A stretch of 64,000 nt of DNA. It comes from Candidatus Kaiserbacteria bacterium (GTDB lineage Bacteria; Patescibacteriota; Minisyncoccia; Phycocordibacterales; JABAAK01). The position numbers and the translations under genes are program-made. The notes below the pieces were generated by a model. It saw only the letters and a program-made list of their open reading frames with translations. It was not told where the DNA came from and ran no database searches. Location: the NCBI GenBank assembly GCA_028820405.1, contig JAPPJI010000021.1, positions 2,770-66,769 on the forward strand. Direction: 5' to 3'. Below, in pieces: positions 2,559 through 29,558 of this stretch. The stretch's first letter is position 1, and each line of letters starts with the position of its first letter.

Positions 2559-2560
2559 GA

Positions 2561-3100: not shown

Positions 3101-3825
3101 ACCGTCTGCTTTGAAATCATAATATCATCAAACTGTCGATCCTGATGTGCCTGCAGGAGGTTCTTTTTGATCAATTCAAGTACGGCGAGGAATGAGACAA
3201 TACTCTCCGCCTTATCCTTCATTGCCATTGAACGAAACGATACCGACACCCGGTCTGACACTGCGGAGAGTACTTTGTCGATCACCTCTTCGATCATGAC
3301 ACGCTTCTCCACGTGTTTTTTCGGTATCTCCTGCAAAAACACCATGTGCCGTACGACTGCCCGTGCGTGGGCGTGGAGCCGCTTTGCACTGCAAGAGAGG
3401 TCCGGAGAAAATGAGACCTCCCGCTCACTCTTGTACACCTGAACGGTATACATCTGCCGTCGCCACGAATGCAATTTCGGCACGACGTGCTCTCGGATGT
3501 ACTCAAACAGTCTCACCCGATCCTCAAGCTGCCGTACATCAACTTCCTCTTCCTCAGTGTATTCGAGCATATCCAGCAGTGATTTCGACTTGATGAGGAT
3601 AAGGATTGAGGCAACGTGCATGAAATGTGCAATTTCCTCTGCCGTCACCGCATCCCCCTGCTTTGTGTGGCGGAGGTAGTCAGCGGTTACCTTTGCAAGT
3701 GACACGGTATTGATCTGCAGTTTCCGCTTGGTGATGAGCTGGTAGAGGAGGTCAATGGGTCCTTCAAACGATTCAACTGACACAACGTACTCTTTCGCAC
3801 TATTCATCATACAGCTTGACGTCAA
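3097..3825 (-). CDS. scpA: segregation and condensation protein A (kleisin)
   Basis: 242 aa. FEGPIDLLYQLI motif near the N-terminus. The scpA-scpB pair overlaps by 4 nt. Confidence 0.8.
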   Translation of the reverse strand: MTSSCMMNSAKEYVVSVESFEGPIDLLYQLITKRKLQINTVSLAKVTADYLRHTKQGDAVTAEEIAHFMHVASILILIKSKSLLDMLEYTEEEEVDVRQLEDRVRLFEYIREHVVPKLHSWRRQMYTVQVYKSEREVSFSPDLSCSAKRLHAHARAVVRHMVFLQEIPKKHVEKRVMIEEVIDKVLSAVSDRVSVSFRSMAMKDKAESIVSFLAVLELIKKNLLQAHQDRQFDDIMISKQTV

Positions 3826-6280: not shown

Positions 6281-7270
6281 CTACGACACCAGTCCGAGCA
6301 ATCGTTTTGCCTCATGCAATCGGTCAGAAAAAAGGGTATTCAGGGTATCACGATTCTTTTCCAGAATACGGTCAACATACTCCCCGTCGCCCTCTGTTTT
6401 CTGATATTGCTCACGTGCTTTTGCAAAGTACGCAAGATATGCATCTGCAAGCTGATCCTTCAATTCTTTATACGTCACACCCCCAGAGCGACATTGGTCT
6501 TCCCGTGCGAGGTACTCTTTTTCTGAGAGCATAAGTTTGAGGTACGTGCAAATAAGACAGGTGGCAGGATCTATCGGCTCACCGGCCGGTGTTGAGTCAG
6601 TTTTAATAGATTGTATCTGCTGCCGAATCACCTCCTCACTGCCAAAAATCGGAATAGTGTTTCGATATGACTTACTCATCTTTTCGCCGTCAATCCCCGG
6701 AACAGTCATTTGATCCTCTGCACGTTCTTCAGGTTCCGTAAAATAATCGGTGCCGGTCAGCCGATGAAATCTCCTCGCAAACTCTCGTGTAATCTCAATA
6801 TGCTGCACCTGGTCTTTGCCGACCGGAACAACAGCGGCGTCAGGAAGCAGAATATCTGCGGCCATAAGAGCTGGGTAGAGGAACGTGCCGACTGACGGTT
6901 CACTTCCCTTTTGCACTGCATCTTTGTATGCATGACCAATGGTTAAAAACGGCATCTTCACCATACAGGCGAATATCCATGCAAGCTCGGTAATCTGAGG
7001 AAAGTCAGATTGTCGATAGATCATGACACGATTAGGATCAATGCCCAGAGCCGTAAACGATCGGACAAACGTGGAAAACAGCTGTTCCTGCTCGTCTCTG
7101 CGATGTACCTCACGGTCACTGAGCCCGGTCAACGCATGAAGGTCTGCAACGAAAAGAAACACCTCTTCCCCACCTTCTTGCATAGCAACAATCTGTTGAA
7201 TTGCACCAAAATAGTTGCCGAGATGCAATTCGCCGGTCGGTTTCAGTCCTGTGAGAATCCGCTTTCCCAT
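6281..7270 (-). CDS. trpS: tryptophan--tRNA ligase
   Basis: HIGH-like TGELHLGNY and KMSKS motifs. The start is set at the internal ATG (MGKRILTG) at 7270. The ORF track extends 50 codons upstream. Confidence 0.9.
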   Translation of the reverse strand: MGKRILTGLKPTGELHLGNYFGAIQQIVAMQEGGEEVFLFVADLHALTGLSDREVHRRDEQEQLFSTFVRSFTALGIDPNRVMIYRQSDFPQITELAWIFACMVKMPFLTIGHAYKDAVQKGSEPSVGTFLYPALMAADILLPDAAVVPVGKDQVQHIEITREFARRFHRLTGTDYFTEPEERAEDQMTVPGIDGEKMSKSYRNTIPIFGSEEVIRQQIQSIKTDSTPAGEPIDPATCLICTYLKLMLSEKEYLAREDQCRSGGVTYKELKDQLADAYLAYFAKAREQYQKTEGDGEYVDRILEKNRDTLNTLFSDRLHEAKRLLGLVS

Positions 7271-7307
7271 AGCCAACGCATTATACAACACCACCACTAA
7301 AGACCTA

Positions 7308-7317
7308 CCCCCCCCCC
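7308..7317. repeat. homopolymeric C10 (G10 on the minus strand) tract, 38-47 nt upstream of the trpS start
   Basis: Seen directly in the sequence (taCCCCCCCCCCtca). Confidence 0.85.
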
Positions 7318-7431
7318 TCATGTGTGTAAAAGTTATCTCTTCAACGTAGCCACTCTGTATCAATAAAAATAACCCGATGCAACCTACTGTTGCATCGGGT
7401 TTTGCTAAGGAAGCGATCACCCCCCTCTCTC

Positions 7432-7779
7432 CTATTTCCGTGCCGGAGCTGTCTCATTCGCCGGCGAACTCCATCCCTGCTGCAAGGTGGCGAGCATGTC
7501 AACGAGATCATGCATATCACCGCTTCGAACCAGCATGATGGCCGAGAAATGGTGTGGTTCTGCAGCCGTGTTTCCCAGCCCTCTCATGTCGGCATCAATG
7601 ACCCGGCTCGATACCGGTCGGAGAACGGGAGGGTCAGGGTGTCGCCAATCGTCCCACTGGTCACGTGCAAACTCGCGCACGTCAAATCCGGTCGACTTGT
7701 TGACGACGATCACTGCTACAAAAACGACCACCACAACTGCCACGACGAGTGTGATACGCTCTAGCCACACTTCTAACAT
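7432..7779 (-). CDS. hypothetical small membrane protein
   Basis: 115 aa. One N-terminal hydrophobic helix (VVAVVVVVFVAVIVV). No known motif. Confidence 0.4.
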   Translation of the reverse strand: MLEVWLERITLVVAVVVVVFVAVIVVNKSTGFDVREFARDQWDDWRHPDPPVLRPVSSRVIDADMRGLGNTAAEPHHFSAIMLVRSGDMHDLVDMLATLQQGWSSPANETAPARK

Positions 7780-7864
7780 GGTACTACCTCCTTTGATGAG
7801 AGAAACGTCAGTTTTCTAAAACCGCCTCCGCATGCAGTATAGCAAGAACAAATACCTCCATCGC

Positions 7865-8275
7865 TTACCGCTTACTCCACTGCGGTGCCCGCCTCGCTTT
7901 TCGCAACCCAAACTTCTTCCGCTCCTTCTGCCTCGAATCTCGGGTCAGAAGACCGAGGTCCTTGAATAGTTTTCGTGCGCCTTCATCGCACGCAACCAAT
8001 GCACGGGCAAGCCCGTGGCTGACTGCCTGTGCTTGTGCTGAAATACCCCCTCCCTTTACCGTAATAGATGCATGGAGACCGGCGAACTCCTCTTTCTCAC
8101 CCCGCGGTCTCAGTGCTACCTGCGTCAGGTATCCTTTTGGAAAATATGCTTCGATATCCTTCCCGTTCACGGTTGTTTTTTTGAATATCTTGGAGACACG
8201 AACACGAGCAACCGCATGCTTTCTGCGGCCGACTGCCTCAATGTATCCTCCTCGTTCTACTTGATTCTCTGCCAT
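7865..8275 (-). CDS. rpsI: 30S ribosomal protein S9
   Basis: GRRKxAVARV start and C-terminal basic KR tail. Confidence 0.95.
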   Translation of the reverse strand: MAENQVERGGYIEAVGRRKHAVARVRVSKIFKKTTVNGKDIEAYFPKGYLTQVALRPRGEKEEFAGLHASITVKGGGISAQAQAVSHGLARALVACDEGARKLFKDLGLLTRDSRQKERKKFGLRKARRAPQWSKR

Positions 8276-8278
8276 AGG

Positions 8279-8638
8279 TTATTCGTTAATCTGCACCCGA
8301 CGCATCTTGCGGTCACGGAGCCGATTACTCGGTAGCATGCCATAGATTGCCCGGCGAAGCACCTCACCATACCCCCGCTTCTCTATGAGCTGAGCGAGTG
8401 ACTGCTCTTTCTTTCCGCCAAAGTACCCGGTGTATCGAACATACACCTTCTGCCGCTTCTTACGCTCATCAATTGCCATTTTTGACGCATTTTCAACGGT
8501 AACGAGCACATTCGGCACCTGATTCGGTGCGTAGGTCACGCTGTCCTTCCCGTTGAGTATGGTGGCAATCTTTGAGGCAGCCCGACCCAGTCGATCACCG
8601 GCAACATCTATGGTTATGTCTCGTCGTTTCTCTTCCAT
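8279..8638 (-). CDS. rplM: 50S ribosomal protein L13
   Basis: GRLASKIATILNGK motif. Adjacent upstream of rpsI, the canonical order. Confidence 0.95.
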   Translation of the reverse strand: MEEKRRDITIDVAGDRLGRAASKIATILNGKDSVTYAPNQVPNVLVTVENASKMAIDERKKRQKVYVRYTGYFGGKKEQSLAQLIEKRGYGEVLRRAIYGMLPSNRLRDRKMRRVQINE

Positions 8639-8640
8639 AC

Positions 8641-8994
8641 CTATACAAATTCAATCACCGCTGACGTTCGCCCGCTCCCCGGTCGTGGCTCAACCTTCGC
8701 GATCCTCGTGTAGCCGCCGGAGTGCTCTTTGTACTTCGGTCCGAGAACTTCAATCAGCTTCTTCACAACGGTGCGATCGTTGTTAAACCGGGCGAGGAGG
8801 AGCCGTCTCGTTGCCACGTCATCCTTTCTTGCCGTTGTTACCAACTTTTCAACAAACGGTCGGACAGACTTTGCCCGAGCAACGGTGGTGTGCACCTTTT
8901 CTTCCAGAATAACGGAGCGAGCGAGCGAGCGAAGCAACTGCTTACGCTGCTGTCCGACCCGCCCAAATTTTCTCTGCTTTCTGTGGTACGCCAT
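8641..8994 (-). CDS. rplQ: 50S ribosomal protein L17
   Basis: MAYHRKQRKFGR...GYTRI signature. The start is at the internal ATG at 8994. Downstream of rpoA, the canonical order. Confidence 0.95.
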   Translation of the reverse strand: MAYHRKQRKFGRVGQQRKQLLRSLARSVILEEKVHTTVARAKSVRPFVEKLVTTARKDDVATRRLLLARFNNDRTVVKKLIEVLGPKYKEHSGGYTRIAKVEPRPGSGRTSAVIEFV

Positions 8995-8998
8995 AGGT

Positions 8999-9940
8999 CT
9001 ATCCCGCATCCTTGAAGGAGATGCCCCGACTCTCAAGGCTGGTAACAATCTCCTCCATCGCCTTGTCACCGATACCCGGCAGGTCACGAATACCGACAAT
9101 ACCCCGCTTGAGGATATCCATAACGGTCCGTATTTCATTTTTCTCCAAGATGGAAACCACACCTGCACTGAGACCGAGATCGTCAATCGTAATGGTATCT
9201 GACCCGGACGCACCCTCTTCTGCCACCTTCTTTTCTTTGCCTTCCTCCTGAAATCCGGTCATTGCCTCAAACTGTGCAATCATCGTACGAACCACTTTGT
9301 CAAGTGCCTGCCTGGGGGTAACGGTTCCGTCTGTTTCAATACTCACAACGAGACGATTGAAGTCGGTTCGATCACCGACCCGCATGTTGTGTACTTCATA
9401 CGCTGACCGCCTGACGGGAGAAAACATGGCATCAACAAAGATAGAATCAACTGCATCTGAGCTGGCAAGATCTTCGCGGGGACGAAAACCAATCCCCTGC
9501 AACACGTCAGCTTCAATACTGAGCTCGGTCTTGCCGTCAGTGATCTCAGCAATGACCAAATCCTTGTTCACGATCTCAATCTGTGACGGTGTTTCAAAAT
9601 CGCCGGCGGTTACCGGACCGACACCGCTCTTCTTGAGGGTAATAGTCTGTGGGAACACCTCGGTATTCGCCCGCACCCGAATGTTTTTCATGTTAACGAC
9701 AACCGTGAGGGCATCCTCCTTGACTCCGTCGATAACGGAAAATTCATGCGGAACATTTTTAATCCGCACCGCAGTGACCGCCGTACCGGGAATAGATGAG
9801 AGGAGCATGCGACGGAGTGCATTTCCCAATGTGTTGCCATACCCCGGGTAGAGGTTTGATATTTCATAGGTTCCCCGGTCCCCCTCTTCACTAATCATTT
9901 CCGGCTTTGATGGAACGGCGATGTTAATGTATTCTGTCAT
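8999..9940 (-). CDS. rpoA: DNA-directed RNA polymerase subunit alpha
   Basis: 313 aa. N-terminal dimerisation domain, C-terminal alpha-CTD (GIGDKAMEEI HhH-like). alpha-operon context. Confidence 0.95.
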   Translation of the reverse strand: MTEYINIAVPSKPEMISEEGDRGTYEISNLYPGYGNTLGNALRRMLLSSIPGTAVTAVRIKNVPHEFSVIDGVKEDALTVVVNMKNIRVRANTEVFPQTITLKKSGVGPVTAGDFETPSQIEIVNKDLVIAEITDGKTELSIEADVLQGIGFRPREDLASSDAVDSIFVDAMFSPVRRSAYEVHNMRVGDRTDFNRLVVSIETDGTVTPRQALDKVVRTMIAQFEAMTGFQEEGKEKKVAEEGASGSDTITIDDLGLSAGVVSILEKNEIRTVMDILKRGIVGIRDLPGIGDKAMEEIVTSLESRGISFKDAG

Positions 9941-15751: not shown

Positions 15752-17104
15752 TCAATAGCACTCAAGTTTTTTGAGTCCCTGGTGTGCACGAAGCTTTTCC
15801 AGTGCCCGTGCTTCAATTTGACGAACCCGCTCACGCGTAACTCCCATCTTGTTACCGATTTGCTCAAGGGTATACCGAATACCATCGTCTTGCATGCCGT
15901 GTCGCATCTCAATGACCTCTCGCTCACGGGAAGAAAGGTCTTCGAGAATGTCTTGTATCTGCTCCCGCAAGATGTCGTGAGAGACAATTGTCTCCTGCGT
16001 GTCCTGATCAACATCCTCAATGGTATCAGATATCTTTGTGTTACTCTCCTCATCATCGGAACCGCCGAGAGGCTTCTCAAGCTGCACGACCTCCTGCGTA
16101 ATACGACGAATAGTGTAGATTTTTTCAACCTCAACACCCAACTCATCAGCCACCTCCTGCACCGTCGGCACACGACCGAGGTCCTGTTCCAGTTGCACCA
16201 TCGTTTTCTTATATCGCTGTGCGGTTTCAGACATGTGCACCGGGATTCGAATCGTTCTTGACTTATCCGCCAGTCCCCGCACAATTGACTGTTTGATCCA
16301 CCACGTTGCGTAGGTGGAGAACTTGAATCCCCGCTGCGGCTCAAACTTGTCCACCGCTTTATACAGCCCTTCAACTCCCTCTTGCACGAGGTCAAGCAGG
16401 TTGAGATCACGACTTCGTCCCGCATAGTTCTTGGCAATAGAGACAACGAGACGGAGGTTTGCGGTCGCAAGCCGATGTCGTGCTTCAAGACCTTCTTCGA
16501 CAACGGTTCGCTGTGCTTTCGACAGTGCAGTGGTTTTCTTTTTCTTTTCAAGCAGTTTTTGACGTGCCATGATCTTCTCCCCGAGTTCCTGCTCTTCTGC
16601 AGCACTCAACAGGGCGTACTTTCCGATGTCCCGCAGGTACATTTGAATGGAATCGTACGAAGAGAGGTCTGTTTCCGGGAACCGACTGTCGGTTTTTAGT
16701 TTCTCTTCATGCAAAATGCCGTCACGATGCACGAGATCAATGCAGTTGTTATTGAGTATTTTCTCAATGCAGTCCCACACTTCCTTCTCATTGTCACATT
16801 CACTCGGATTAACGTGTTCAAGGATGATGTCTGACGGAACATAGCCACTCCCCTGACACTGTTTAACAAGATCTTTGATTTTTTTGCGAAACTTGGTCGG
16901 AATCACTGCATACAACTCCTTCTCTCTCTGTGCCGCAAGAATCGCTTCATCAATGTTGTCGTCCTTTTCCGCCGTTTTCTTTTTTGCAACACGCACCGCT
17001 TTCTTTACCTTCTTTTTCATTGTTTTCTTTACCGCCTTCTTCGCCCGTGTCGTCTTCTTTTTTACAGACGTTTTTTTCCGTGCAGTTTTCTTCTTGGCTG
17101 GCAT
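15752..17104 (-). CDS. rpoD: RNA polymerase sigma factor RpoD (sigma-70) with a lysine-rich N-terminal tail
   Basis: Region 2 ([35 protein letters not shown]). Regions 3 and 4 ([21 protein letters not shown]). The N-terminal ~48 aa are K/A/T-rich ([17 protein letters not shown]...). Confidence 0.9.
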
Positions 17105-17223: not shown

Positions 17224-18897
17224 TTACACCGCGGGTGCTCGGCTTTTTTTCACCTCCTGTCGCTTTCGAGCTTCTTGAAACAACGTACTGATTGATTTGC
17301 GCAGATCTTCTTGCACCCGAGCAGCCCGATCCTGCTTACTCAGATCAGGCATACCTTCCTCATACTTCACCACTGCCTCACTGCGAGAAACAGACGGCAA
17401 GCCCCACACAGCACATATCGTCCGCAGTGCATCCTTCTGATCTTTCTCAACTGATCCTGTCGTGCCGAGAAATGCTTGGGCACTGGCAACGATGCGCAGG
17501 TGTTTGTCGATCTTGCCGAGTTGATGTTTCGATGCAGCAGGAGTCTGGCAGACCGGAGCCGGCGTGTTCTGTATGTCAGATCGCAGTTGTTCAACCATTT
17601 CAGCCACCGCGGTGTCGGATACCCCGCAAAATGATGCCGCTTCTTTCTGCAGGTGGTCACGGGTCACGGGATTTTGCACCTTTGCAATGAGGGGAGCAAA
17701 CTGCGTCAGCACACCGCGAACCCGGTCAGCGGTATCACCGCTTGCAACCTGTGTATCAATACAATCGGTGACAAATGAAGCGACTGATTTAGCACCCCGA
17801 AACCGTGTCCGAAACTCCTCGGGATCGGCAGCAATCATATCCGCCGGATCTTTCCCGTCCGGCAGCACGACCACCTTGATATTGGTTGCATCAACACCGA
17901 TCGTAATTGCCATTTCAATCACCCGAAGTGTCGCCCGCTTCCCTGCACCGTCACCGTCGAGGGCAAGAATGAGACGGCCGCCCGAGAGTCGCTGCATTGT
18001 TTCGAGATGTTCGGTGGTAACGGCGGTTCCGGATGTTGCAACGGTCATCGGATACCCGGCCTGGTGCATGAGGATAGCATCAACCGGTCCTTCGGTGAGG
18101 ACAACGACACTTTGGCGACGAATTTCCTGTTTTGCACGATGCAATCCGTACAGAAACGTTGATTTGTTGAACAGCGGCGGCTGCATGGTCTCCGGCGAGT
18201 TGATGTACTTCGCCGTTTCTTTTTCACCGTATGCCCGCCCGGAAAATCCGATGATACGATTATTATCATGGAACGGAAACAGAACCCGTCCCCGGAAAAA
18301 GTCAAAGTGACGACCTCTCCTTTGTACGCAAAGACCTGCTTTGACATACTGTTCAAGTTCCTTTTTCGTCCGATTCTCAGTCACAGTCCGCCACGAATCC
18401 GGTGCAAACCCGATGCCCCACGCAGTAATTGACGCTTCACTGATACCGCGCCCGGTGAGGTACGATCGAACGTCATCGGTGAGCAGTTCCTGATAGAGTG
18501 AGGCGGTTGACGCAAGGATGTCATACAGACTATCCGTGTCATTCCGGCGTCTCGTCGGATGATTACCAAGTTCAATGCCTGCCTGCTGCGCAAGGATAGC
18601 GAGAGCTCCCTTGAAATCAACCCCTTCAACTTCCTGCACAAAGGAAAAGATATCTCCCCCTTTTTGTGATGAGAAGCAGTAGTACACGCCGTCTTCCGGA
18701 TCAACGTAAAAAGAGGGGGTTTTTTCGTTCGTAAAAGGAGAGAGCCCCTTCATTCGTTTACCAGAGGGAACGAGATTGGTGTATGGAGAAATGACGTCAA
18801 CGATATCAATGACCTCCTTTATTTGTCGCACCTCGTCACCTCGAGCGGCGTGAGGGCGTTGTGAGGCACACATCAATTGCATCGTATCCCAAAGCAA
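17224..18897 (-). CDS. dnaG: DNA primase
   Basis: N-terminal zinc-ribbon-like region and Toprim domain (LTEGPVDAILMHQAGY...LALDGDGAG). dnaG-rpoD operon order. Confidence 0.85.
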   Translation of the reverse strand: MLWDTMQLMCASQRPHAARGDEVRQIKEVIDIVDVISPYTNLVPSGKRMKGLSPFTNEKTPSFYVDPEDGVYYCFSSQKGGDIFSFVQEVEGVDFKGALAILAQQAGIELGNHPTRRRNDTDSLYDILASTASLYQELLTDDVRSYLTGRGISEASITAWGIGFAPDSWRTVTENRTKKELEQYVKAGLCVQRRGRHFDFFRGRVLFPFHDNNRIIGFSGRAYGEKETAKYINSPETMQPPLFNKSTFLYGLHRAKQEIRRQSVVVLTEGPVDAILMHQAGYPMTVATSGTAVTTEHLETMQRLSGGRLILALDGDGAGKRATLRVIEMAITIGVDATNIKVVVLPDGKDPADMIAADPEEFRTRFRGAKSVASFVTDCIDTQVASGDTADRVRGVLTQFAPLIAKVQNPVTRDHLQKEAASFCGVSDTAVAEMVEQLRSDIQNTPAPVCQTPAASKHQLGKIDKHLRIVASAQAFLGTTGSVEKDQKDALRTICAVWGLPSVSRSEAVVKYEEGMPDLSKQDRAARVQEDLRKSISTLFQEARKRQEVKKSRAPAV

Positions 18898-18962
18898 TCA
18901 AGAGATATATCCTGTCATATGTGCACTTTGTGGATAGTGTGGAAAACCTCAGACCTGCTCCC

Positions 18963-18974
18963 CTCACCCCCTAA
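18963..18974. repeat. left copy of a ~12-bp imperfect direct repeat (CTCACCCCCTAA) flanking the AT-rich island
   Basis: Seen in the sequence. The right copy CTCACCCCCCTA lies at 22641-22652. Each copy overlaps the stop codon of a minus-strand gene (KAP NTPase, rpoC). Confidence 0.3.
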
Positions 18975-20346
18975 CACTTGGTATGCTATCACCATGAAAT
19001 TCCTCAATGTATAAAAGCAATACATCCTTGAATGTTTTTAGAACCTCTCCTTCGTGTATTACATCACCTCCCTTTATGCTTAATTCTCCTTCACGAACGA
19101 CCAACCCTTCAATGTGCCTACCTTTAAGCAAACGTGGCAGAAATGGTGCCTTGTGGGACAGGTTTACTGCTGACACAATGAACTTACAGTGGTCTCTCAA
19201 ACCATCAAACATATCACTCTGACCATATTTATTATCAACTATGGGTTCACAATCGTTAGAAAGAGATTGCTTTATAGCGTCAACTAAAGCTTTCTTTGAT
19301 CCGACAGTCTTTATTAAAAAAGACACAGTTCTTTTCATGGGTCTTCCGTATTCCCTCTCTTCAATCATAGAGAACCCTGAACTATTTCTTTTTTGTGAAT
19401 ACTGTAGCGTCCCCAACCCATTGAGGACCTGTCGCAAGTTTATGATATTTTTTCTGAAGAAGTTTTTCAAAAGGAATAATGACAACCAGACACTTATATA
19501 TTGACCTGTTTTATCTGTCACTTGTTTATTTGGTTGTGGGCCAAAAACGGTACCCATATATTCAGCAATAATACCTTTCGGGTCATACTCAAAAACTTCC
19601 TTGCTGTAAAATTTATCAAGATACCCTTGTGAATCTGTGCCAGCACCATATTTGTGGTGAAAGATTGATCGTAGGTTATTATAGTCCGCTACAAAAATTA
19701 CGTGATCAAAACCAAGCCTTTTAGCAACTGTCTTCTCCTCATCCTCGCCAACAAATAAAGAAAATACATTAAATAGTCTGAAAATATGTTCGGGATCAAG
19801 TCGATCCATATCATCAATAACCAAAACTTTCTTCTTTTCTTTCCCCGCAACTTTGCACAACATTTTTCTGATTTTTTCTTCAGTAATCGTCCCAAAAGAT
19901 TCTTTTATCTCTTCAATCGCAGCAACTATGAAATTCGCAATTGGATTGACCCTCCCCAGCAAAGATGCGGTTTTCCACCCTATCTTTACCAACTTTTTCA
20001 TTTTTGATTTTTCCTTGTGCCCTGACAAGGGTCCTTTTTCTCCACCTTGTTCCATAATAGATATCATCAAGTCTTCCTTCATGGTTTCTATCAGTACCTC
20101 ACTTCCCACTATTTGATAAGCTGTGGGGCGAAGACGTACCCAAAAGTAATATTCCTCATACTGCTTAAAAAACCTCTCGATAAAAAACGTCTTCCCTATA
20201 CCAAATTTGCCAGAAAACAAGATTCTACTGTTTCTCAACATCTCCAAATGATGTTTAAAATGATCAAACAAGGGATCTATCGGTATTATCATACCGCTTC
20301 CAACCAACCCGTCTTGGGATTCTTTAGGATCTTTTGTTACATCCAT
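18964..20346 (-). CDS. KAP-family P-loop NTPase
   Basis: Walker A SGKFGIGKTFF. The Walker B context KVLVIDDMDRLDPEHIF matches the KAP signature (hhhhIDDLDRxxP). AT-rich codon usage unlike the flanking genes. Confidence 0.7.
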   Translation of the reverse strand: MDVTKDPKESQDGLVGSGMIIPIDPLFDHFKHHLEMLRNSRILFSGKFGIGKTFFIERFFKQYEEYYFWVRLRPTAYQIVGSEVLIETMKEDLMISIMEQGGEKGPLSGHKEKSKMKKLVKIGWKTASLLGRVNPIANFIVAAIEEIKESFGTITEEKIRKMLCKVAGKEKKKVLVIDDMDRLDPEHIFRLFNVFSLFVGEDEEKTVAKRLGFDHVIFVADYNNLRSIFHHKYGAGTDSQGYLDKFYSKEVFEYDPKGIIAEYMGTVFGPQPNKQVTDKTGQYISVWLSLFLLKNFFRKNIINLRQVLNGLGTLQYSQKRNSSGFSMIEEREYGRPMKRTVSFLIKTVGSKKALVDAIKQSLSNDCEPIVDNKYGQSDMFDGLRDHCKFIVSAVNLSHKAPFLPRLLKGRHIEGLVVREGELSIKGGDVIHEGEVLKTFKDVLLLYIEEFHGDSIPSVRG

Positions 20347-20461
20347 ACACTAATCACATGATAGTGTAATAACGATATGGAGCACAAGTCAAGACATTGA
20401 CCGACAGTTTCCGATCACTATTCATTTGTAGCCGTGCAAGGAGGTTATACTGAATATAAGC

Positions 20462-21541
20462 ATGGTCACCAAAAGCCTAAACAAGGGATTGCATACTGCA
20501 AAGAGAGAAAAGAAAGATGAGTTCTATACCCAACTTACTGATATTGAAAAAGAGCTGAAACATTACAAAGATCAGTTTCGTAATAAAGTTGTGTATTGTA
20601 ATTGCGATGACCCTTATGAAAGTAATTTTTTTAAATATTTTTCTCTCAGTTTCAACCACTTGGGGTTAAAAAAGCTTATCACCACGAGTTACAAACCATC
20701 ACCAATTACTGGCAAACAATTGCCTTTGGTTGAAATTGAAGGATTAAAGCCAGAAGGCAAAGAACCTTTCAAACTTGAGATCAATGAAGTTTTAGACAAT
20801 AACAAAGATGGTGCTGTTGACTTAACAGATGTTGAGTGGCTATTGAAGAATGATGCGAACACCGCCACACCACTTGATAGTGACGGTGATTTTCGCAGTG
20901 AAGAATGTGTAGAATTTCTCAAAGAAGCAGATGTTGTTGTAACGAACCCTCCTTTTTCACTTTTTCGCGAGTACCTTGCTCAGTTGATGGAGTATGATAA
21001 GAAGTTTTTAATCATTGGAAACATCAACGCCATCACGTACAAAGAGACATTTCCGTTAATCCAGAAAAACAAGGTATGGCTTGGAGTAAGCATCCATAGC
21101 GGAGATCGTGAATTCAGAGTTCCTGACCACTACCCTCTAGAGGCTGCCGGGTATCGTGTTGATGACGAAGGCAACAAATACATTCGCATAAAAGGTGTTC
21201 GATGGTTTACAAATCTTGACACAGAAAAGCGGCACGAAAGTCTTGTTTTGTACAAGAAGTACACCCCCGAGGAGTTTCCAAAATATGACAACTATGATGC
21301 CATAAATGTAAATAAAACCTCTGACATCCCGATGGATTATGCTGATGCAATGGGTGTGCCGATCACTTTTTTGGACAAACACAACCCCGATCAATTTGAG
21401 ATAGTAAATTCAAATAATGTAAGGTTAAGCGAAAAAGTTCCGACCAAAGACTCGGGACTTATCAAAGACAAAGAAAGTGCAATAAACGGCAAGCCGACCT
21501 ATGTTCGAGTTGTCATAAAAAACAAGGAGGTGACAAAATAA
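20462..21541 (+). CDS. N6-adenine DNA methyltransferase, M.EcoRI-like (EcoRI_methylase family)
   Basis: The SDEFYTQ N-terminal motif, VVYCNCDDP, FFKYFSLxFxxLGLKKLI, VVTNPPFSLFREYL (NPPF motif IV), DKKFLIIGNINAITYKE and YPKYDNYDAINVNKTxDIP are all as recalled for M.EcoRI. AT-rich. Confidence 0.8.
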   Translation: MVTKSLNKGLHTAKREKKDEFYTQLTDIEKELKHYKDQFRNKVVYCNCDDPYESNFFKYFSLSFNHLGLKKLITTSYKPSPITGKQLPLVEIEGLKPEGKEPFKLEINEVLDNNKDGAVDLTDVEWLLKNDANTATPLDSDGDFRSEECVEFLKEADVVVTNPPFSLFREYLAQLMEYDKKFLIIGNINAITYKETFPLIQKNKVWLGVSIHSGDREFRVPDHYPLEAAGYRVDDEGNKYIRIKGVRWFTNLDTEKRHESLVLYKKYTPEEFPKYDNYDAINVNKTSDIPMDYADAMGVPITFLDKHNPDQFEIVNSNNVRLSEKVPTKDSGLIKDKESAINGKPTYVRVVIKNKEVTK

Positions 21542-21542
21542 C

Positions 21543-22637
21543 ATGAAAATAGAACTCAAAAGAATTCCTGTTCGTGAGGCAGTTAATGGCTACAAAGATA
21601 ATGCCGAGGAGGGTGTTACGGCATACGGCGGCAAACTTGATGTTCGCCCAAAATACCAACGCGAGTTTGTTTATGACGACAGACAGCGTGATGCGGTAAT
21701 TGAAACAATCAAACAAGATTTTCCGCTTAATGTGATGTACTGGATGACAAAAGATGACGGAATTAATTACGAAATGATTGACGGTCAACAGCGAACTATC
21801 AGTATTGGTCAGTATGTGAGTGGTAATTTTGCACTTGCTAATCGTTTTTTCTATAACCTCACAAAAGAAGAGCAGAATCAGATCCTTGACTACGAGCTCA
21901 TGATTTACTTCTGCGAAGGAACAGACAAAGAACGTTTAGATTGGTTTAAGGTTATCAACATCGCCGGTGAAAAACTGACCGATCAAGAAATACGGAATGC
22001 GGTATATACCGGACCATGGCTTTCTGATGCAAAATTGAAATTCAGTAAAACGAGCTGTGCAGCGTACAAATTAGCAAACGACGGAGGAACACTTTTGAAC
22101 GGTGAATTAAACAGACAGCACTACCTAGAAACCGCCCTCTCTTGGATTAATCATGGAGAAATAGATGGTTACATGGCAAAGCATCAGCACGAACCAAACG
22201 CAAACAACCTATGGAGTTACTTTCAAGATGTGATCATGTGGGTTCGCAAGACATTCCCAAAATATCGAAAAGAAATGAGAGGTGTGAATTGGGGCGGGCT
22301 GCACAACGAATCTAAAGACAAAAAATTGGATGCTGAGAAACTAGAAACTGAGGTTGCTCAATTAATGCAAGATGAAGATGTAACAAGAAGGTCGGGCATT
22401 TACCCTTATGTCCTCACAAGAGATGAGAGACACCTCCAAATACGTGCGTTTACCGACAACATGAAACGAGAAGTATATGAGGAACAAGAGGGAATCTGCA
22501 AAAAATGTGAAGAACAATTCCCATTCGAAGAAATGGAGGCTGACCACATTAAGCCGTGGCACGAAGGCGGCAAAACGACCTCAGAAAATTGTCAGATGTT
22601 GTGCAAGGATTGCAATCGGAGAAAATCCGGAAAATAA
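21543..22637 (+). CDS. DUF262 (ParB/Srx-like, DGQQR motif) + C-terminal HNH nuclease fusion (COG1479/GmrSD-related)
   Basis: YQREFVY and IDGQQRTISIGQY DUF262 signatures. C-terminal CKKCEEQ...ADHIKPWHEGGKTTSENCQMLCKDCNRRK is a canonical zinc-finger HNH. The start codon lies 1 nt after the MTase stop. Confidence 0.8.
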   Translation: MKIELKRIPVREAVNGYKDNAEEGVTAYGGKLDVRPKYQREFVYDDRQRDAVIETIKQDFPLNVMYWMTKDDGINYEMIDGQQRTISIGQYVSGNFALANRFFYNLTKEEQNQILDYELMIYFCEGTDKERLDWFKVINIAGEKLTDQEIRNAVYTGPWLSDAKLKFSKTSCAAYKLANDGGTLLNGELNRQHYLETALSWINHGEIDGYMAKHQHEPNANNLWSYFQDVIMWVRKTFPKYRKEMRGVNWGGLHNESKDKKLDAEKLETEVAQLMQDEDVTRRSGIYPYVLTRDERHLQIRAFTDNMKREVYEEQEGICKKCEEQFPFEEMEADHIKPWHEGGKTTSENCQMLCKDCNRRKSGK

Positions 22638-22640
22638 CAA

Positions 22641-22652
22641 CTCACCCCCCTA
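22641..22652. repeat. right copy of the ~12-bp imperfect direct repeat (CTCACCCCCCTA) flanking the island
   Basis: See the left copy at 18963-18974. Confidence 0.3.
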
Positions 22653-25600
22653 CTCCGCCTCTTTCTCTGCTTCCGCTTCTTCAAGACGGCGTTGCACGTC
22701 TTCACTTATCTTCCGAACAATATCATGCTTCTTGCTCCCTTCAAAACCGCTGCCAACCGGCACCAGGCGACCGATGATCACGTTTTCTTTCACACCGTCA
22801 AGGGTATCCTTTGATCCGCTGATAGCAGCCCTGATGAGAACACTGGTTGTGTTCTGGAACGACGCTGAAGAGAGAAAATTACTCCGGGACACCGACACGT
22901 TGGTGATACCGGTCACAATATGCTCCGCCTCCATGACATGTTTCTTTGCCGTTTTCAGCTCTTCATTTGCTTCAATAAATTCACTCAAATCAATAACCTC
23001 ACCGGCAGTATAGATACCGTCACCGGAATCAGTGATCCGAAGCCGGCTGAACATTTGACGGATGATAATTTCAAAATGTATTGATGCGGTACCCACTCCC
23101 TGCAGTTCGTAGACCTTTGAAACCTCGCTCAAAATGTACTCCTGTGTCGCCTCCTTCCCGCAGTACTGCAGCATCTCCTCAAGGTCCGCTGATCCGTCAG
23201 TGAGAAACTGTCCTTTCGTTACTTCATCGCCGACTGCAACCGAAAGCGTTCGAATCGGAGAAACAGAATAACTCTTGTCCGCAGCTGCAACCCGTTTCGC
23301 ACCGACGTTGAGATAAATTGTTCGACTTCCGTCGCTGTGTTCTTCAATCTGCTCAATCGTCCCGTCAGCGTGAGCGATAACTGCCGGCACTTTCGGTGCC
23401 CGTCGTTCAAAGAGCTCGGTCACCCGCGGCAGTCCTGAGGTAATGTCACCGCCGGCCTGAGCGACACCGCCGGCGTGGAAGGTTCGAAGCGTTAGCTGCG
23501 TACCCGGCTCTCCGACCGACTGTGCGGCAATGGTTCCGACCGCTTCACCGAGATCAACAATCTCACCCGTTGTTCGGTCTTCGCCGTAGCACTTCGCACA
23601 CACGCCGCGTGCATGCAGGCAGGTAATCGGTGATCGCACCCGTATCTTGTCAACAGACTCATGCTTTTCAATAGTTCGTGCCAGGTCGCGATCGATAAAG
23701 TCCCCTTTCTTTGCAACCGCTTTCCCCTTGTCACCAACAACGTCTTCGGAGAGGAATCGTCCCCGAATACGGTCACTGAACGAGTCTCCCGCTCCCGATT
23801 CTGTTTCCCGGTAGAGGTTGAACCCTTTTGTCGTACCGCAGTCGTCTCCGTCAATCCGAATCTCCTGTGCAACGCTGAAGAGCTTTCGTGAGAGGAACCC
23901 CGCATCCGCCGTCTTAAGAGCGGTGTCAGCGGCACCCTTTCTCGCACCGAATGACGCATTGAAGTACTCAATAGACTTCATACCGTCTTTCAGTGACGAA
24001 ATAACCGGCTGCTCAATCGGCTCACCTGATGCCGAGTCAACGACACCGAACATCGCCGTCATGTCACCGAGGTCATCAAAGGAGCCACGGGCACCGGATT
24101 GGATCATTTTTCCGACCGGGGAATCTGTCAGCACCTCATCCCGTGCCCGCTGACTGAGATCGCCTTTCACGTCAAGCCACAGGTCAATGTTCTTTCGCTT
24201 TCTCTCCTGGAGAGAGATGGTCCCCTCGTTATACGCATCCATAACCTCCTGTGATTTCTTGAACCCTTCCTGGATGATCGAATCACGATTGCCCGGGCAA
24301 CGAAGGTCTTCCCATGAAAAGGTCACGCCGGATGCCATTGCATATTTGAAACCGAAGTCCTTGATGAGGTCAAGGTGGTCAACAAGCACCTGGCGACCGA
24401 GGGTATCAAAAATGTCTCTCGTAACCTGTTTGAGCATCTTCTTGTCAATAGCGTCGTTAATGTACGGATACTCCTTCGGCAGTGTCATATTGAACAGCAG
24501 GCGGCCTACCGTTGTCTCAAACATCGTTCCCCGATGCTCACCGTACTTCTCTTTGTCAGAAGCGAGCACTTTTATCTTCGATCGAATCCCGACAATGCCG
24601 TAGTCACTCGCGCTAATCGCTTCATTTATGTTTGCAAAATACTTCCCTTCCCCGTGACCGCCTTCTTCAATCTCTGTTGCCCAGTAACAGCCGAGAACGA
24701 TGTCCTGCTCCGCCGGCGTTATGTTAATCTCACCCGATGCCGGTGAGACAACATTCATAGAAGATGCAAGGATGTTCTTTGCCTCTGCCTGTGCCTCCTC
24801 AGAAAGCGGCAGGTGCACCACAACCGCATCACCGTCGAAGTCTGCGTTGTACGGCGTACACACGAGCGGGTGAAACTCAATGGCAAGTCCTTCGGTGAGG
24901 ATCGGCCGAAACGCCTGAATACTCTGCCGGTGCAGTGTCGGTGCCCGATTCAGGAGCATATACTTTCCGACAATAACTTTTTCTAATATCTCCCACACAA
25001 CGGGCTCACGTGAATCAATGAGCCGCTGTGCGCCCCGAATATTGAAGGCAAGGTCACGATCAAAAATCTCCCCGATAATGAACGGCTTGAATATTTCCAG
25101 TGCCATTGTCTTCGGCAGACCGAACTCATCGAGTTTCAGGTGCTGACCGACGACAATAACTGAACGGCCGACAAAGTCAACGCGTTTTCCGAGCAGGTTC
25201 AGTCGGAAGTACCCGGTCTTTCCGCCGAGGTACTCTGATATCGGCTTCAGCTGCCGTGACTGACCGCGACCGCCGGTTGACGGTGCACCGCGACCCGTGC
25301 TCTTCTCAAAGAGCGCGTCAACTGATTCCTGTAAAAGTCGTTTTTGCGTGTTGACAAAGATTGCCGGTGCCTTTGACTCACGAAACTCTTTCAGACGGTT
25401 GTTTCGAACAATGATGTGGCGATAGAGGTCATTGAGGTCGGAACTTGCGTAGCGACCGCCGTCAAGCTGCACAATCGGTCGTATACCCGGAGGAATAACC
25501 GGAAGCACGGTCACGAACATCCACTCCGGTCTGTTTCCCGACTGGATAAATGATCGGATAATGAGCAGCTGCCGCTGCAGCCGTTCCTGCTGCCCTTTGT

Positions 25601-26342: not shown

Positions 26343-29300
26343 CTATGTGTACTGTATTTTATCAACCGGACCCGGCTCCTTCTGATCATCCGCCGTGTCA
26401 AGCGTCACGTTCAAGCCGAGACCGCGAAGGTAGTAGAGGAGAACGTTGAATGCTGCCGGCGTCCCCGTCTGCACGATCGGCTTCTTTCTGATAATGGCGT
26501 TGTACGCTATGTTTCGCCCATGCATGTCGTCTGACTTGATAGTCAGCATCTCACGCAGCGTGTGTGCTGCACCGTGACCGAGCAGGGCCCACACTTCCAT
26601 CTCTCCGAGCCGGCCTCCGCCGAACCGAGACCGCCCGCCCGGCGGCTGTTGTGTGATGAGGGAGTACCGACCGGTTGATCGGGCGTGCACCTTGTCTTGC
26701 ACCATGTGCTCCAGCTTCAGTGTGTACACCCAACCGATCGAAACGTCACCGGCAAACCGATCTCCCGTCTTGCCGTCGTAGAGGTCAACTTGACCGCTCT
26801 CCGGATATCCCGCCTCAACGAGCTCGTTCCGAAGTTCATCCTCGGTGATAGAGGTCATCGGCGGTACAATCGCCTGGTATCCCTGTGCATGTGCGGCAAG
26901 ACCGAGGTGCATCTCAAGCACCTGTCCGATGTTCTTTCGGGACGGCACACCAAGTGATGACAGGATAATGTCAATCGGCTCACCGTCACTGGTAAACGGC
27001 ATGTCTTCAATCGGTGCAATACGGGAAATGACCCCCTTGTTTCCATACCGATTTGCCAGCTTGTCACCCACCTTCACACGACGCAAATCAGCGACAATAA
27101 TGTGCACCTGTTTCAGAACACCCATGTCAATCATGTGATCACTTTCGCGGTCACGAACCTGAACAGACACCACCTTCCCCTGCTCTCCCGGCGGAAGTGT
27201 CTTTGAGGTGTCCCGCATATCCTTCGCCTTGTCACCAAAGATGGAGAGGAGCAGGTGCTCTTCGGCTGACATCTGCATCTCACCGCGCGGGGTGAGCTTT
27301 CCGACAAGGATATCGCCGGGAACGACCTCCGATCCGACGCGAATCACGCCGTCAAGACCCAGGTTGCGGAGTTTGCGTTCGGGAACATTCGGAATATCAG
27401 CTGTCATCACGTCAGGACCGAGCTTGGTCTCCCGAACATCAACAACATGCTCCTTCACCTGTATGGAGGTAAGCACGTCATCGTGTACCAGCCGCTCAGA
27501 GACAATGATCGCATCGTTGAAAGTGCTGTCATACGGCAGAAAGGCGACCCGAAGGTTTTTCCCGACAGCAATACTCCCGTCAACCGTTGATGCTATGTCA
27601 GCAAGCACATCACCTTTCTTCACCTTGTCACCGAGAGAAACAGACGGTCGCTGGTGATTTGCAAAGGTGTACGCGGATCCTGCAAGTTTGAACACCTCAA
27701 GATCGTAGCGCTTGGTATCGTTCCTTGACTTCACTGCGATATGCTTCGCGTCAACAGAGACAACCTCACCGTCTTCCTCGGCAACCATGAGCCGACCGGA
27801 TGACCGTGCAAACGCTTCCTCGTAGCCGGTTGCAATCAACGGCTTCTCCGGCCGAAGACAAGGAATTGCCTGTTGTTGCATGCGGGTACCGGTTGCAGAA
27901 CGATACGGAATGGTGTTACTTGCAAACGGCACAAGTGCGGATGCGATGGAGAGGATCTGACCGGTCGCCGCGTCAACATAGTCAACTTCCTGCGGTGACA
28001 CCCGATCATACTGACCGTCATGCCGAACAAGGACCGTTTCCTGCGTGATGCTTCCCTTTCCGTCAGTCTCCACGTCAGCCCCTGCAATTTTGTACCGCTC
28101 ATCTTCTGCCGCGGTCATGAATGCAATCTCATCAGTCACCTTTCCTCCTTTCACCACGTTGTACGGACACTCAAGCAACCCATACTCATTAATACGGGCA
28201 TACAGAGCAAGGTGCAGTACGAGACCGATGTTTCCCCGTTCCGGCGTGTTGATCGGACAGATGCGCCCGTAATGGGTGCGGTGTACGTCACGGACTGAGA
28301 CATTTGCGTGCTCACGGGTCACACCACCGGCACCAAGTGCGGAAATTGTTCTGAGGTGCTCCAACTGGTCAAGGACGTTCTGCTGTTTGAGTGTCTGCGA
28401 GAGCTGATCAGTATTGAAAAATCCGTGAATAGTCGACTGAAAGGTCCTGAGGTTGATAACGTTTGTCGGCAGCTCAAGCAGTTTCGGATCCTGCGTCAAC
28501 ATCTTATCACGCACATTCTTACGTACCCGAATAAATCCGGTGCGTGCATGCTCGTAGACCAGCTCACCGACAGACCGAATGCGACGAAATCCGAGATGGT
28601 CAATATCATCCCCCTCAGCACCCGGCGTGTTGTTCAGCCGCACGATCTCTTTCACGATGACAACGATGTCCTCAAGGTTGAGCACAAGGTTATCCTTCGT
28701 CTCTTCGGTAATGGGCAGGCTAAACCGTTTATTAAAATTAATACGGCCAATCTCACTGATGTTGTACCACTCCGGTGAGAACCGTGACTGCACCATCTCC
28801 TTCGCCCGCTCAGGACTCACGACACTGCCTGACCGGAGCACCTTGTAAAAGGCGAGCCACACCTCATCCATCGTCGTTGCAGTGTCATCGGCAAAACTCT
28901 GCTCTATTGATTTGTGTGCCGCCGGATCGTCTGCAAAAAGTTTCAGCACATCAGCCTGCGTCTCCGGACCGAACGCACGGATAAAGGTGGTGATCGGCAG
29001 CCGTCGTGAACTCTGGTCAACACGGACTGAGACGAGACCGTTTACATCACTCTCAAACACGAGCCAGATACCCTTCCCTTTCTGCGGCACAACCTGTGCA
29101 CCGAAGGTGTCACGGGTTTTCCGCTTCGTCTCTTTGAAAAATCGGATTCCCTGAGAACGAATCAGCTGTGATACGATGGTTCGCTCAACACCGTTGATGA
29201 TGAACGATCGCTGCGGTGTCATCATAGGGATGTCTCCGAAGAGCACCTCCTCTTCGACAACCCGCTTTGTCACCGTATTATTGAGGTGCAGCACAACACG

Positions 29301-29558
29301 GAGGGGGGCGGTGTAACTGGTAAAGGATTCTTTTGCTTTCTGCGGCGAGAGACGGGGTTCCTCAAGGCGGTGGGAGACAAAGGAAATCTTGTACCGATTG
29401 TTTGAATCCTCAATCGGAAAAAACTCTTCAAACAGGCTCTTCAAACCTGCATCAAGAAACGTGCCGTACGACTCTTCCTGAAATGCAAGAATGTCGTTCA
29501 GCGGAAATGACGGCTCTTTGTATCGCGAAAATGTCTTTTTTGGTCTGGCGGTATCCAT
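26343..29558 (-). CDS. rpoB: DNA-directed RNA polymerase subunit beta
   Basis: 1071 aa. Conserved beta regions (GRHGNKGVISRI-like GNKGVISRIAP, fork and clamp segments). Immediately upstream of rpoC. Confidence 0.97.
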   Translation of the reverse strand: MDTARPKKTFSRYKEPSFPLNDILAFQEESYGTFLDAGLKSLFEEFFPIEDSNNRYKISFVSHRLEEPRLSPQKAKESFTSYTAPLRVVLHLNNTVTKRVVEEEVLFGDIPMMTPQRSFIINGVERTIVSQLIRSQGIRFFKETKRKTRDTFGAQVVPQKGKGIWLVFESDVNGLVSVRVDQSSRRLPITTFIRAFGPETQADVLKLFADDPAAHKSIEQSFADDTATTMDEVWLAFYKVLRSGSVVSPERAKEMVQSRFSPEWYNISEIGRINFNKRFSLPITEETKDNLVLNLEDIVVIVKEIVRLNNTPGAEGDDIDHLGFRRIRSVGELVYEHARTGFIRVRKNVRDKMLTQDPKLLELPTNVINLRTFQSTIHGFFNTDQLSQTLKQQNVLDQLEHLRTISALGAGGVTREHANVSVRDVHRTHYGRICPINTPERGNIGLVLHLALYARINEYGLLECPYNVVKGGKVTDEIAFMTAAEDERYKIAGADVETDGKGSITQETVLVRHDGQYDRVSPQEVDYVDAATGQILSIASALVPFASNTIPYRSATGTRMQQQAIPCLRPEKPLIATGYEEAFARSSGRLMVAEEDGEVVSVDAKHIAVKSRNDTKRYDLEVFKLAGSAYTFANHQRPSVSLGDKVKKGDVLADIASTVDGSIAVGKNLRVAFLPYDSTFNDAIIVSERLVHDDVLTSIQVKEHVVDVRETKLGPDVMTADIPNVPERKLRNLGLDGVIRVGSEVVPGDILVGKLTPRGEMQMSAEEHLLLSIFGDKAKDMRDTSKTLPPGEQGKVVSVQVRDRESDHMIDMGVLKQVHIIVADLRRVKVGDKLANRYGNKGVISRIAPIEDMPFTSDGEPIDIILSSLGVPSRKNIGQVLEMHLGLAAHAQGYQAIVPPMTSITEDELRNELVEAGYPESGQVDLYDGKTGDRFAGDVSIGWVYTLKLEHMVQDKVHARSTGRYSLITQQPPGGRSRFGGGRLGEMEVWALLGHGAAHTLREMLTIKSDDMHGRNIAYNAIIRKKPIVQTGTPAAFNVLLYYLRGLGLNVTLDTADDQKEPGPVDKIQYT

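Follow-up and report, generated by a model that had tools for sequence, protein, structure and literature searches.

We examined an AT-rich island that separates rpoC from dnaG in a 64,000-nucleotide (nt) stretch of a Candidatus Kaiserbacteria contig (JAPPJI010000021.1; the whole stretch is called the window, and coordinates are window positions). The island carries the genes for an M.EcoRI-family methylase, a DUF262-HNH nuclease and a KAP-family NTPase. Comparison with related loci brought out one new point: the methylase contains a short variable segment that exists in at least 20 types, these types are reassorted without regard to the nuclease, and none of the nuclease positions varies along with them. 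Judged from this comparison, the restriction subunit may take no account of which recognition module its methylase carries. Overall, we assign a probability of roughly 0.75 to a logic in which the methylase protects host DNA by N6-methyladenine (m6A), the nuclease attacks unmarked DNA and the KAP NTPase is independent of both; the island would then be a small horizontally acquired defence islet, inserted once and made up of two functionally independent units. Its features are the following.

18963..22652: inserted island, ~3.68 kb including both flanking direct-repeat copies (from GC content, homology breaks and an independent assembly)
20462..21541, plus strand: M.EcoRI-family N6-adenine DNA methyltransferase, 359 amino acids (aa) (Pfam PF13651, PADLOC MTase_II)
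21083..21205, plus strand: variable segment resembling a target-recognition domain (TRD), 41 aa, methylase residues 208–248, 'type 1', GVSIHSGDREFRVPDHYPLEAAGYRVDDEGNKYIRIKGVRW (from alignment)
21543..22637, plus strand: DUF262(DGQQR)+HNH nuclease, 364 aa (Pfam GmrSD_N + HNH, PADLOC REase_II)
18964..20346, minus strand: KAP-family P-loop NTPase, 460 aa (Pfam KAP_NTPase)
20347..20461: divergent intergenic spacer between the KAP and methylase genes, 115 base pairs (bp) (from the listing of open reading frames, ORFs)

The methylase matched Pfam PF13651 (EcoRI_methylase, E = 1.9e-151) and, end to end, the PADLOC model MTase_II (PDLC03297, E = 2.9e-128), and its catalytic NPPF motif (residue 162) was intact. 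In the nuclease, Pfam identified GmrSD_N/DUF262 (E = 9e-17) and HNH (E = 1.9e-13; PF01844 and PF14279) domains but no DUF1524 domain. The DGQQR motif lay at residue 80 (nt 21780–21794), and the HNH motif (nt 22497–22628) was intact, with two CxxC pairs around D-H...N...N. The PADLOC model REase_II (PDLC03418, E = 2.1e-130) matched residues 1–364 on profile positions 1–372 of 372. The methylase stop codon (TAA) and the nuclease ATG were separated by exactly 1 nt. Both the nuclease and the KAP protein had 100% identical counterparts among NCBI proteins of a Candidatus Kaiserbacteria metagenome-assembled genome. An earlier sequence-only reading of this DNA had placed the three genes at these coordinates and on these strands, with the nuclease 1 nt past the methylase stop, and had named the KAP, EcoRI-methylase and DUF262 + HNH domains; the ORFs and Pfam confirmed all of this, including its claim that the nuclease is not an EcoRI-type PD-(D/E)xK enzyme.

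To ask what belongs with the nuclease is to ask what accompanies it elsewhere, and in this analysis we gathered 91 other loci that carry it. An EcoRI-family methylase gene lay beside the nuclease gene in 89 of them (upstream in 88, downstream in L088; L numbers denote the loci compared), while the two loci that had none contained at most 150 nt of upstream sequence before the contig end; the pair was therefore present in 89 of 89 informative loci. The 1-nt junction recurred in L001–L003. DNA homology between the window and other cassettes was restricted to positions 20478–22638. Because of this linkage in other loci and the confinement of homology to the pair, the methylase and nuclease genes can be regarded, on comparative grounds, as a conserved unit that is known and very common and that standard tools would report as restriction-modification (R-M) type II.

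The abundance of the family was considerable. Homologues of the nuclease numbered more than 8000 clusters at 90% identity, of which the best 119 were 74–79% identical to it and included some source-named Patescibacteria, Deltaproteobacteria and Bacteroidales, and a library clustered at 50% identity held 478 clusters with E ≤ 1e-30. The nuclease was found on 89 plasmids of many genera, in a few phage records and in at least 137 IMG/VR stretches, and the pair was carried on plasmids and viral contigs of many phyla; by these counts of clusters and viral-contig matches, the cassette family is among the commoner methylase-nuclease pairs in metagenomes. The suggestion of the sequence-only reading that the island is an undescribed defence module did not hold, given the end-to-end PADLOC matches of both proteins and the 478 nuclease clusters. 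Its claim that the pair is not textbook R-M survived in part and for another reason: the pair is already catalogued, but it may not work like Type II, in that the nuclease does not track the TRD-like segment of the methylase.

Some cassettes elsewhere contained additional genes. Directly before the methylase gene, L001 (4741–4938), L020 (168–377) and L021 (44–253) had an ORF of 65–69 aa with an HTH_3 domain, resembling a C protein; unlike these relatives, the window had no such helix-turn-helix ORF in the spacer at 20347..20461. Between methylase and nuclease, L018 and L019 (1235–1717) had a 160-aa ORF with no Pfam match, and L020 (1488–2069) and L021 (1364–1945) had a 193-aa ORF with weak T5orf172/MUG113 matches that may represent a mobile endonuclease gene which has invaded the cassette. 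These interrupted cassettes, L018–L021, contained the closest homologues of the nuclease (79% identical). Two further copies sat in defence-rich neighbourhoods: L001 beside a small Recombinase-domain gene and AAA_13/AAA_21 ATPases (3725–4318, 7164–9478), and L002 beside a second methylase with an EcoO109I-like fragment, Fic, SocA/Panacea, DUF3800 and a C5 methylase (2482–3584, 7195–7761).

Over its full length, the window methylase was 48.5% (tblastn) or 52.5% (MAFFT) identical to authentic M.EcoRI of E. coli pU90-3, the gene for which adjoins one annotated as 'type-2 restriction enzyme EcoRI'. The DUF262-linked methylases of plasmids were 42–57% identical to the window methylase, so many were no closer to it than M.EcoRI, and in a neighbour-joining tree the R.EcoRI-linked methylases formed one clade among the DUF262-linked ones. 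Because M.EcoRI is as close as the DUF262-linked methylases and its clade is nested among them, one methylase family serves two unrelated nuclease folds. A search of plasmids with R.EcoRI returned a different set of loci from the DUF262-HNH cassettes.

The variable segment lies just before the conserved W-x-TNLD...RH motif of the methylase and is probably DNA-recognising. Among 81 complete cassettes it fell into at least 20 discrete types, which disagreed with the remainder of the methylase. For example, the window and L002 were 20% identical in the segment and 76% elsewhere, the window and L004 were 66% identical in the segment and 48% elsewhere, and the DUF262-linked methylase of E. faecium (L025) shared 63% of the segment and 37% of the remainder with M.EcoRI. 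DNA homology between the window and both L020 and L021 broke exactly at the segment. Since the segment type of the window differs from that of M.EcoRI (37% identity), its target need not be GAATTC, and a recognition site with an AATT core would be a guess from family membership. Cassettes linked to R.EcoRI behaved differently: five of these (from E. coli, Klebsiella, Leuconostoc, Staphylococcus and Rhodococcus, with restriction endonucleases 61–88% identical) had one segment type, and the segment was the best-conserved part of their methylases (63–95% identical vs 57–83% elsewhere), as should be the case for a target-recognition element with a fixed-specificity partner.

The DUF262-HNH nucleases did not track the segment type. 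Nucleases 80–86% identical were paired with unrelated segment types (L056/L062 and L067/L073), and in L086/L093, where the methylases were 83% identical outside the segment, only the segment was swapped. Below ~75% nuclease identity, sharing of a segment type was at the random level (0.05–0.16 vs 0.11 expected). The segment type amounts to 2.03 bits of information, and no single nuclease column accounted for more than 0.97 of them; there was no local peak, and background columns of the methylase reached 1.11 bits, so that nuclease columns were no higher (48 non-redundant sequences, no phylogenetic correction). In the same loci the nuclease was more conserved (75–79%) than the methylase (63–70%). 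One member of the 50%-identity library, P0402 (688 aa), was a natural fusion of an EcoRI_methylase and a DUF262-HNH protein through a linker of ~30 residues, in which NPPF had degenerated to FPSF and CNCDDP to CNAGDG; this suggests a methylase fold kept for DNA recognition only. A second apparent fusion, P0499, was rejected because its junction reads like out-of-frame translation.

In the mechanism that we favour, the M.EcoRI-family enzyme would methylate adenine N6 in host DNA and the translationally coupled DUF262-HNH protein would cut DNA without the mark, via a zinc-bound HNH (beta-beta-alpha-Me) site. Binding or hydrolysis of a nucleoside triphosphate (NTP) by the ParB-like DGQQR domain would probably gate or position cleavage, and the stand-alone cytosolic KAP NTPase would form a separate unit. 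Of this, the protection of methylated DNA from cleavage, the need for an NTP, the sequence recognised and whatever defensive role KAP may have are inferred.

The comparative data raise doubt that the nuclease recognises a defined sequence alone. If R-M logic is granted, orthodox independent recognition, in which the segment is not a TRD or a few nuclease residues retune specificity, has a little less than an even chance in our estimation; a methylase that supplies the specificity while the ParB-like NTPase gates or positions HNH cleavage is a tentative, less probable option; and modification-sensing variants take up what is left. The second of these corresponds to methylase-guided restriction of a Type III-like or Type IIG-like kind, in which the nuclease would have no specificity of its own and would be complexed with or loaded by the methylase, the exchangeable TRD would determine where both enzymes act, and NTP-gated clamping or sliding by the ParB-like domain would precede HNH cleavage. 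A generic nuclease with an exchangeable methylase TRD would explain both the conservation of the nuclease above that of the methylase and the free shuffling of TRD types; the type sharing at random level, the segment-only change in L086/L093, the absence of an informative nuclease column, the single well-conserved type of the R.EcoRI-linked cassettes and the P0402 fusion with its altered NPPF motif all speak for it as well. However, the role of the segment in specificity is proposed from comparison only, the methylase-nuclease complex is hypothetical, the mutual-information test may lack the power to pick up a handful of dispersed nuclease residues that would suffice to retune specificity, P0402 is the single convincing fusion, and in PADLOC the nuclease is classed with ordinary Type II restriction endonucleases. 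We regard guided restriction as possible and still doubtful.

Were guided restriction true, the cassette would follow Type III-like logic without a helicase and represent a new mechanistic class of R-M, and the family could yield a small HNH nuclease, reprogrammable through exchange of 41 residues in its partner. The proposition that the cassette is a very widespread kind of R-M, with a generic ParB-like NTPase-HNH subunit and specificity from the exchanged methylase TRD, is likewise one that we advance with less than even confidence, as a minority view.

Modification sensing by the nuclease is improbable. Under this explanation it would be a Type IV enzyme that happens to stand beside a methylase, or host m6A would act as a licensing signal, as phosphorothioate does for SspE. 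The DGQQR DUF262 domain is a hallmark of GmrSD, BrxU and SspE, and the next-best PADLOC matches of the nuclease were NsnA (3.6e-26) and PD-T4-2_A (4.3e-11). Against this, a strict coupling of methylase then nuclease, by overlap or across a 1-nt junction, held for 89 of 89 informative loci and is the signature of protective methylation; the protein lacks DUF1524, its mREase_IV match in PADLOC (7.6e-5) was confined to residues 304–360, which cover the HNH motif only, and a sequence-profile search gave no PDB match to BrxU or SspE.

Several points weigh against the methylase-protected cleavage that we prefer. To our knowledge, all characterised DUF262 nucleases (GmrSD, BrxU and SspE) sense modified rather than unmodified DNA. 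Literature searches and sequence and profile searches of the PDB turned up neither a publication nor a solved structure on any nuclease of this family, nor a characterised REBASE enzyme for the one in the window, and the label 'restriction enzyme' is a prediction drawn from the PADLOC model and gene context. The AlphaFold2 (AF2) model of the nuclease was unusable for residues 1–220 (predicted local distance difference test, pLDDT, <50) because the alignment was shallow (rows 74–79% identical). Segment types change while the nuclease shows no corresponding change, which is difficult to square with both proteins recognising the same site independently. AATT-core palindromes were not depleted in the host (GAATTC, 6 observed vs 5.9 expected; CAATTG, AAATTT and TAATTA also at expectation); a recent arrival would be expected to give just such counts, and they carry no information here. 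Finally, since all three genes arrived in one insertion, KAP and the R-M pair may yet have been functionally connected in this particular donor.

Two further observations concern restriction more generally. In the host part of the window (outside 18898–22652), only GCGC, GGCC and CTAG were strongly depleted (observed/expected 0.30, 0.32 and 0.18, respectively), which hints at other, older restriction pressures on the host genome. CviAII and NlaIII (CATG) were considered as characterised candidates for the nuclease. CviAII was dropped, as its 2008 classification as 'unknown superfamily' is at odds with an obvious HNH motif, and the same table assigns NlaIII to the HNH superfamily.

The KAP gene is best read as a separate passenger and an independent single-gene anti-phage candidate. 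Its product matched Pfam KAP_NTPase (E = 1.4e-13; 51.2 bits vs a cut-off of 20), and Walker A (GKFGIGKT, nt 20188–20211) and Walker B (VLVIDD, nt 19810–19827) were both intact. Aravind et al. reportedly described, in 2004, transmembrane helices inserted in the NTPase domain as typical of many KAP proteins; no transmembrane helix was found in the window protein (top 19-residue Kyte-Doolittle mean of 1.29). Its AF2 model (pLDDT 77) comprised a P-loop core and, after it, ~200 C-terminal aa that were helical and had no family match. KAP was present in 0 of the 91 other nuclease-bearing loci and had weak matches on two plasmids only, both different from the 20 nuclease-bearing ones listed. Homologues occurred without the methylase-nuclease pair, and the nearest of them (≤41% identity) were solitary genes in variable regions, beside Fic, DpnI, SocA/Panacea or Zeta-toxin genes. 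In a 2026 study, single-gene KAP NTPases fused to uncharacterised C-terminal regions protected against phages in a Walker B-dependent manner (PMC13552941). The window KAP fits the description of these protective proteins, and its role is accordingly a putative one.

The sequence-only reading had instead suggested that KAP and the pair may form one module. An integrated three-gene system of this sort, in which KAP would sense infection or regulate the methylase-nuclease pair, is very unlikely. All three genes do lie within one repeat-bounded insertion, and KAP and methylase are divergent across the 115-bp spacer. However, KAP is missing from every other cassette locus, its two plasmid matches fall outside the 20 listed nuclease-bearing plasmids, its homologues stand alone elsewhere, and DNA homology to other cassettes ends at the methylase start; as a conserved system, the three-gene arrangement is in effect already refuted. 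The co-arrival of KAP with the R-M pair means that the genes were linked in the donor, and does not thereby make them mutually dependent.

The history of the island could be traced at its borders, where the following host genes and repeats are found.

15752–17104, minus strand: rpoD, host gene
17224..18897, minus strand: dnaG, host gene adjoining the insertion (start at 18873 in other assemblies)
18963..18973, plus strand: direct repeat, dnaG-side copy, CTCACCCCCTA, which holds the last codons and stop of KAP
22641..22652, plus strand: direct repeat, rpoC-side copy, CTCACCCCCCTA, the last 3 nt of which are the rpoC stop codon
22650..26339, minus strand: rpoC, host gene adjoining the insertion (stop convergent with the nuclease stop)
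26343–29558, minus strand: rpoB, host gene

The GC content was 0.392 in the island vs 0.510 in the remainder of the window, and the island was the minimum-GC 3.7-kb stretch of the whole 64 kb (sliding-window mean 0.503, standard deviation 0.028). GC at third codon positions (GC3) was 0.36–0.41 in the island genes vs 0.52–0.60 in rpoD, dnaG, rpoC and rpoB. Relatives with an empty site were obtained by a search for DnaG homologues followed by contig look-up. In L017 (DnaG 56% identical), rpoB-rpoC-dnaG-rpoD were contiguous and the rpoC stop overlapped the dnaG start, and in L016 (DnaG 68% identical) the rpoC-dnaG spacer was ~76 bp. Nucleotide homology between the window and these two relatives ended at ~22664–22672 and picked up again at ~18809–18834. 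A DnaG scan of genome contigs gave only a false lead from Coprococcus, and one of metagenome contigs gave only relatives at 30–34%. The 9-mer CTCACCCCC occurred in exactly two copies in the 64 kb, on the same strand and at both island edges (18963–18971 and 22641–22649). The repeat extends to CTCACCCCC(C)TA, an 11/12-nt match with one extra C, and its TA on the rpoC side is part of the rpoC stop.

Composition, the empty site in relatives and the flanking direct repeats together mark the island as foreign and, by all these comparisons, horizontally acquired. With the only two copies of CTCACCCCC standing at its two ends, it has the appearance of one insertion into a short rpoC-dnaG spacer; the pattern is what would be left by a single insertion just past the rpoC stop with an 11/12-bp target duplication (or microhomology). 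The AT-richness and horizontal acquisition claimed in the sequence-only reading were thus borne out by the computed composition profile and by the adjacency of rpoC and dnaG in relatives, and the three genes were not seen as core genes at this position, which is empty in L016 and L017. An assembly or binning artefact that joined foreign DNA to a Kaiserbacteria contig, as the abrupt GC change and the metagenome-assembled source might suggest, can for practical purposes be set aside: a second assembly (Logan, SRR10996926; L015) was 100% identical over the same 11.3 kb, spanning both junctions, host sequence goes on at both sides in the gene order of relatives, and the direct repeat is present at both junctions.

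No integrase, transposase or tRNA was found within the island, and an Rfam scan of 17–24 kb, including the KAP/methylase spacer, returned no match. A promoter and terminator scan gave overall no more matches than shuffling would; with that limit, the sole promoter-like site for KAP was TTGACT-18-TACACT (20392–20363). The nuclease and rpoC are convergent genes with 12 nt between their stops (22637–22650). This gap contains no terminator-like site, so read-through from rpoBC would run antisense over the R-M genes and then in sense into KAP and dnaG-rpoD; rpoC and dnaG appear co-transcribed in relatives.

The native spacer also left a mark beside the island. Two tandem DnaA-box-like 9-mers, TTTTCCACA and CTATCCACA, lie just upstream of dnaG (18929–18946, minus-strand sense), and L016 has the equivalents TTCTCCACA and TTATCCACA at 3312–3342, so that the motif is conserved between the window and this 68%-DnaG relative and marks the rpoC-dnaG spacer that survives next to the insertion. 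A 19-nt inverted repeat (18933–18951 / 19966–19984, 17/19 complementary) places a DnaA-box-like copy inside the KAP gene; a rough estimate puts the chance expectation for 4.1 kb at ~0.05 pairs of this kind. In L016, the 3' end of rpoC (3031–3351) was called as a separate 106-aa ORF, which we take to be a frameshift or assembly error and not an extra gene, because homology to the window rpoC continues through it.

Overall, the island is an ordinary case of mobile defence genes landing in a streamlined genome of the candidate phyla radiation (CPR). The insertion is precisely reconstructible, given the intact empty site in relatives and the 11/12-bp duplication that includes the rpoC stop codon.

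Comparison with known systems places the two units differently. The KAP NTPase resembles single-gene KAP defences such as EF_KAP (PMC13552941) in its Walker A/B NTPase, its C-terminal region without known domain and the variable, defence-rich context of its kind, but EF_KAP has two transmembrane helices and the window KAP has none. In Foldseek searches with the KAP model, the best PDB folds were RdrA of RADAR (E = 1.8e-4, TM-score only 0.36, 12% identity), BrxC and ORC/Cdc6, all with low TM-scores; unlike in RADAR, no RdrB adenosine deaminase is adjacent, the neighbours of KAP being dnaG and the methylase. Likeness to PDC-S20 of PADLOC was weak and partial (1.9e-6).

The methylase-nuclease pair shares with EcoRI R-M a methylase of the same Pfam family, at 48.5–52.5% identity, and the form of a two-gene co-oriented cassette on mobile DNA. 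It differs in its DUF262 + HNH nuclease, where EcoRI has a PD-(D/E)xK fold, in its gene order (methylase-nuclease in the window, nuclease-methylase in EcoRI loci) and in its segment, 37% identical to that of M.EcoRI, whereas R.EcoRI-linked methylases share 63–95%. With Type II R-M, it has in common a methylase that has NPPF and a family match, and an adjacent nuclease linked to it across unrelated genomes; both proteins match end to end the REBASE-derived PADLOC Type II models REase_II (PDLC03418) and MTase_II (PDLC03297). The GmrSD, BrxU and SspE enzymes, which are NTP-stimulated, have the same layout as the nuclease, with an N-terminal ParB-like DUF262 domain bearing DGQQR and a C-terminal His-Me finger nuclease. 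The window protein is much shorter (364 aa), ends in a zinc-bound PF01844 HNH instead of DUF1524 and has no profile match to the solved structures of that group, and, unlike GmrSD-type Type IV enzymes, its family is paired with its own methylase in every informative locus. Type III R-M (Mod/Res) differs in that Res combines a superfamily 2 helicase with PD-(D/E)xK, whereas the window protein combines a ParB-like NTPase with HNH, and the window methylase is gamma-class and EcoRI-like. Type III nevertheless offers the parallel to the shuffling seen here, though at the level of function only, since it joins an exchangeable methylase TRD to a generic NTP-dependent nuclease subunit.

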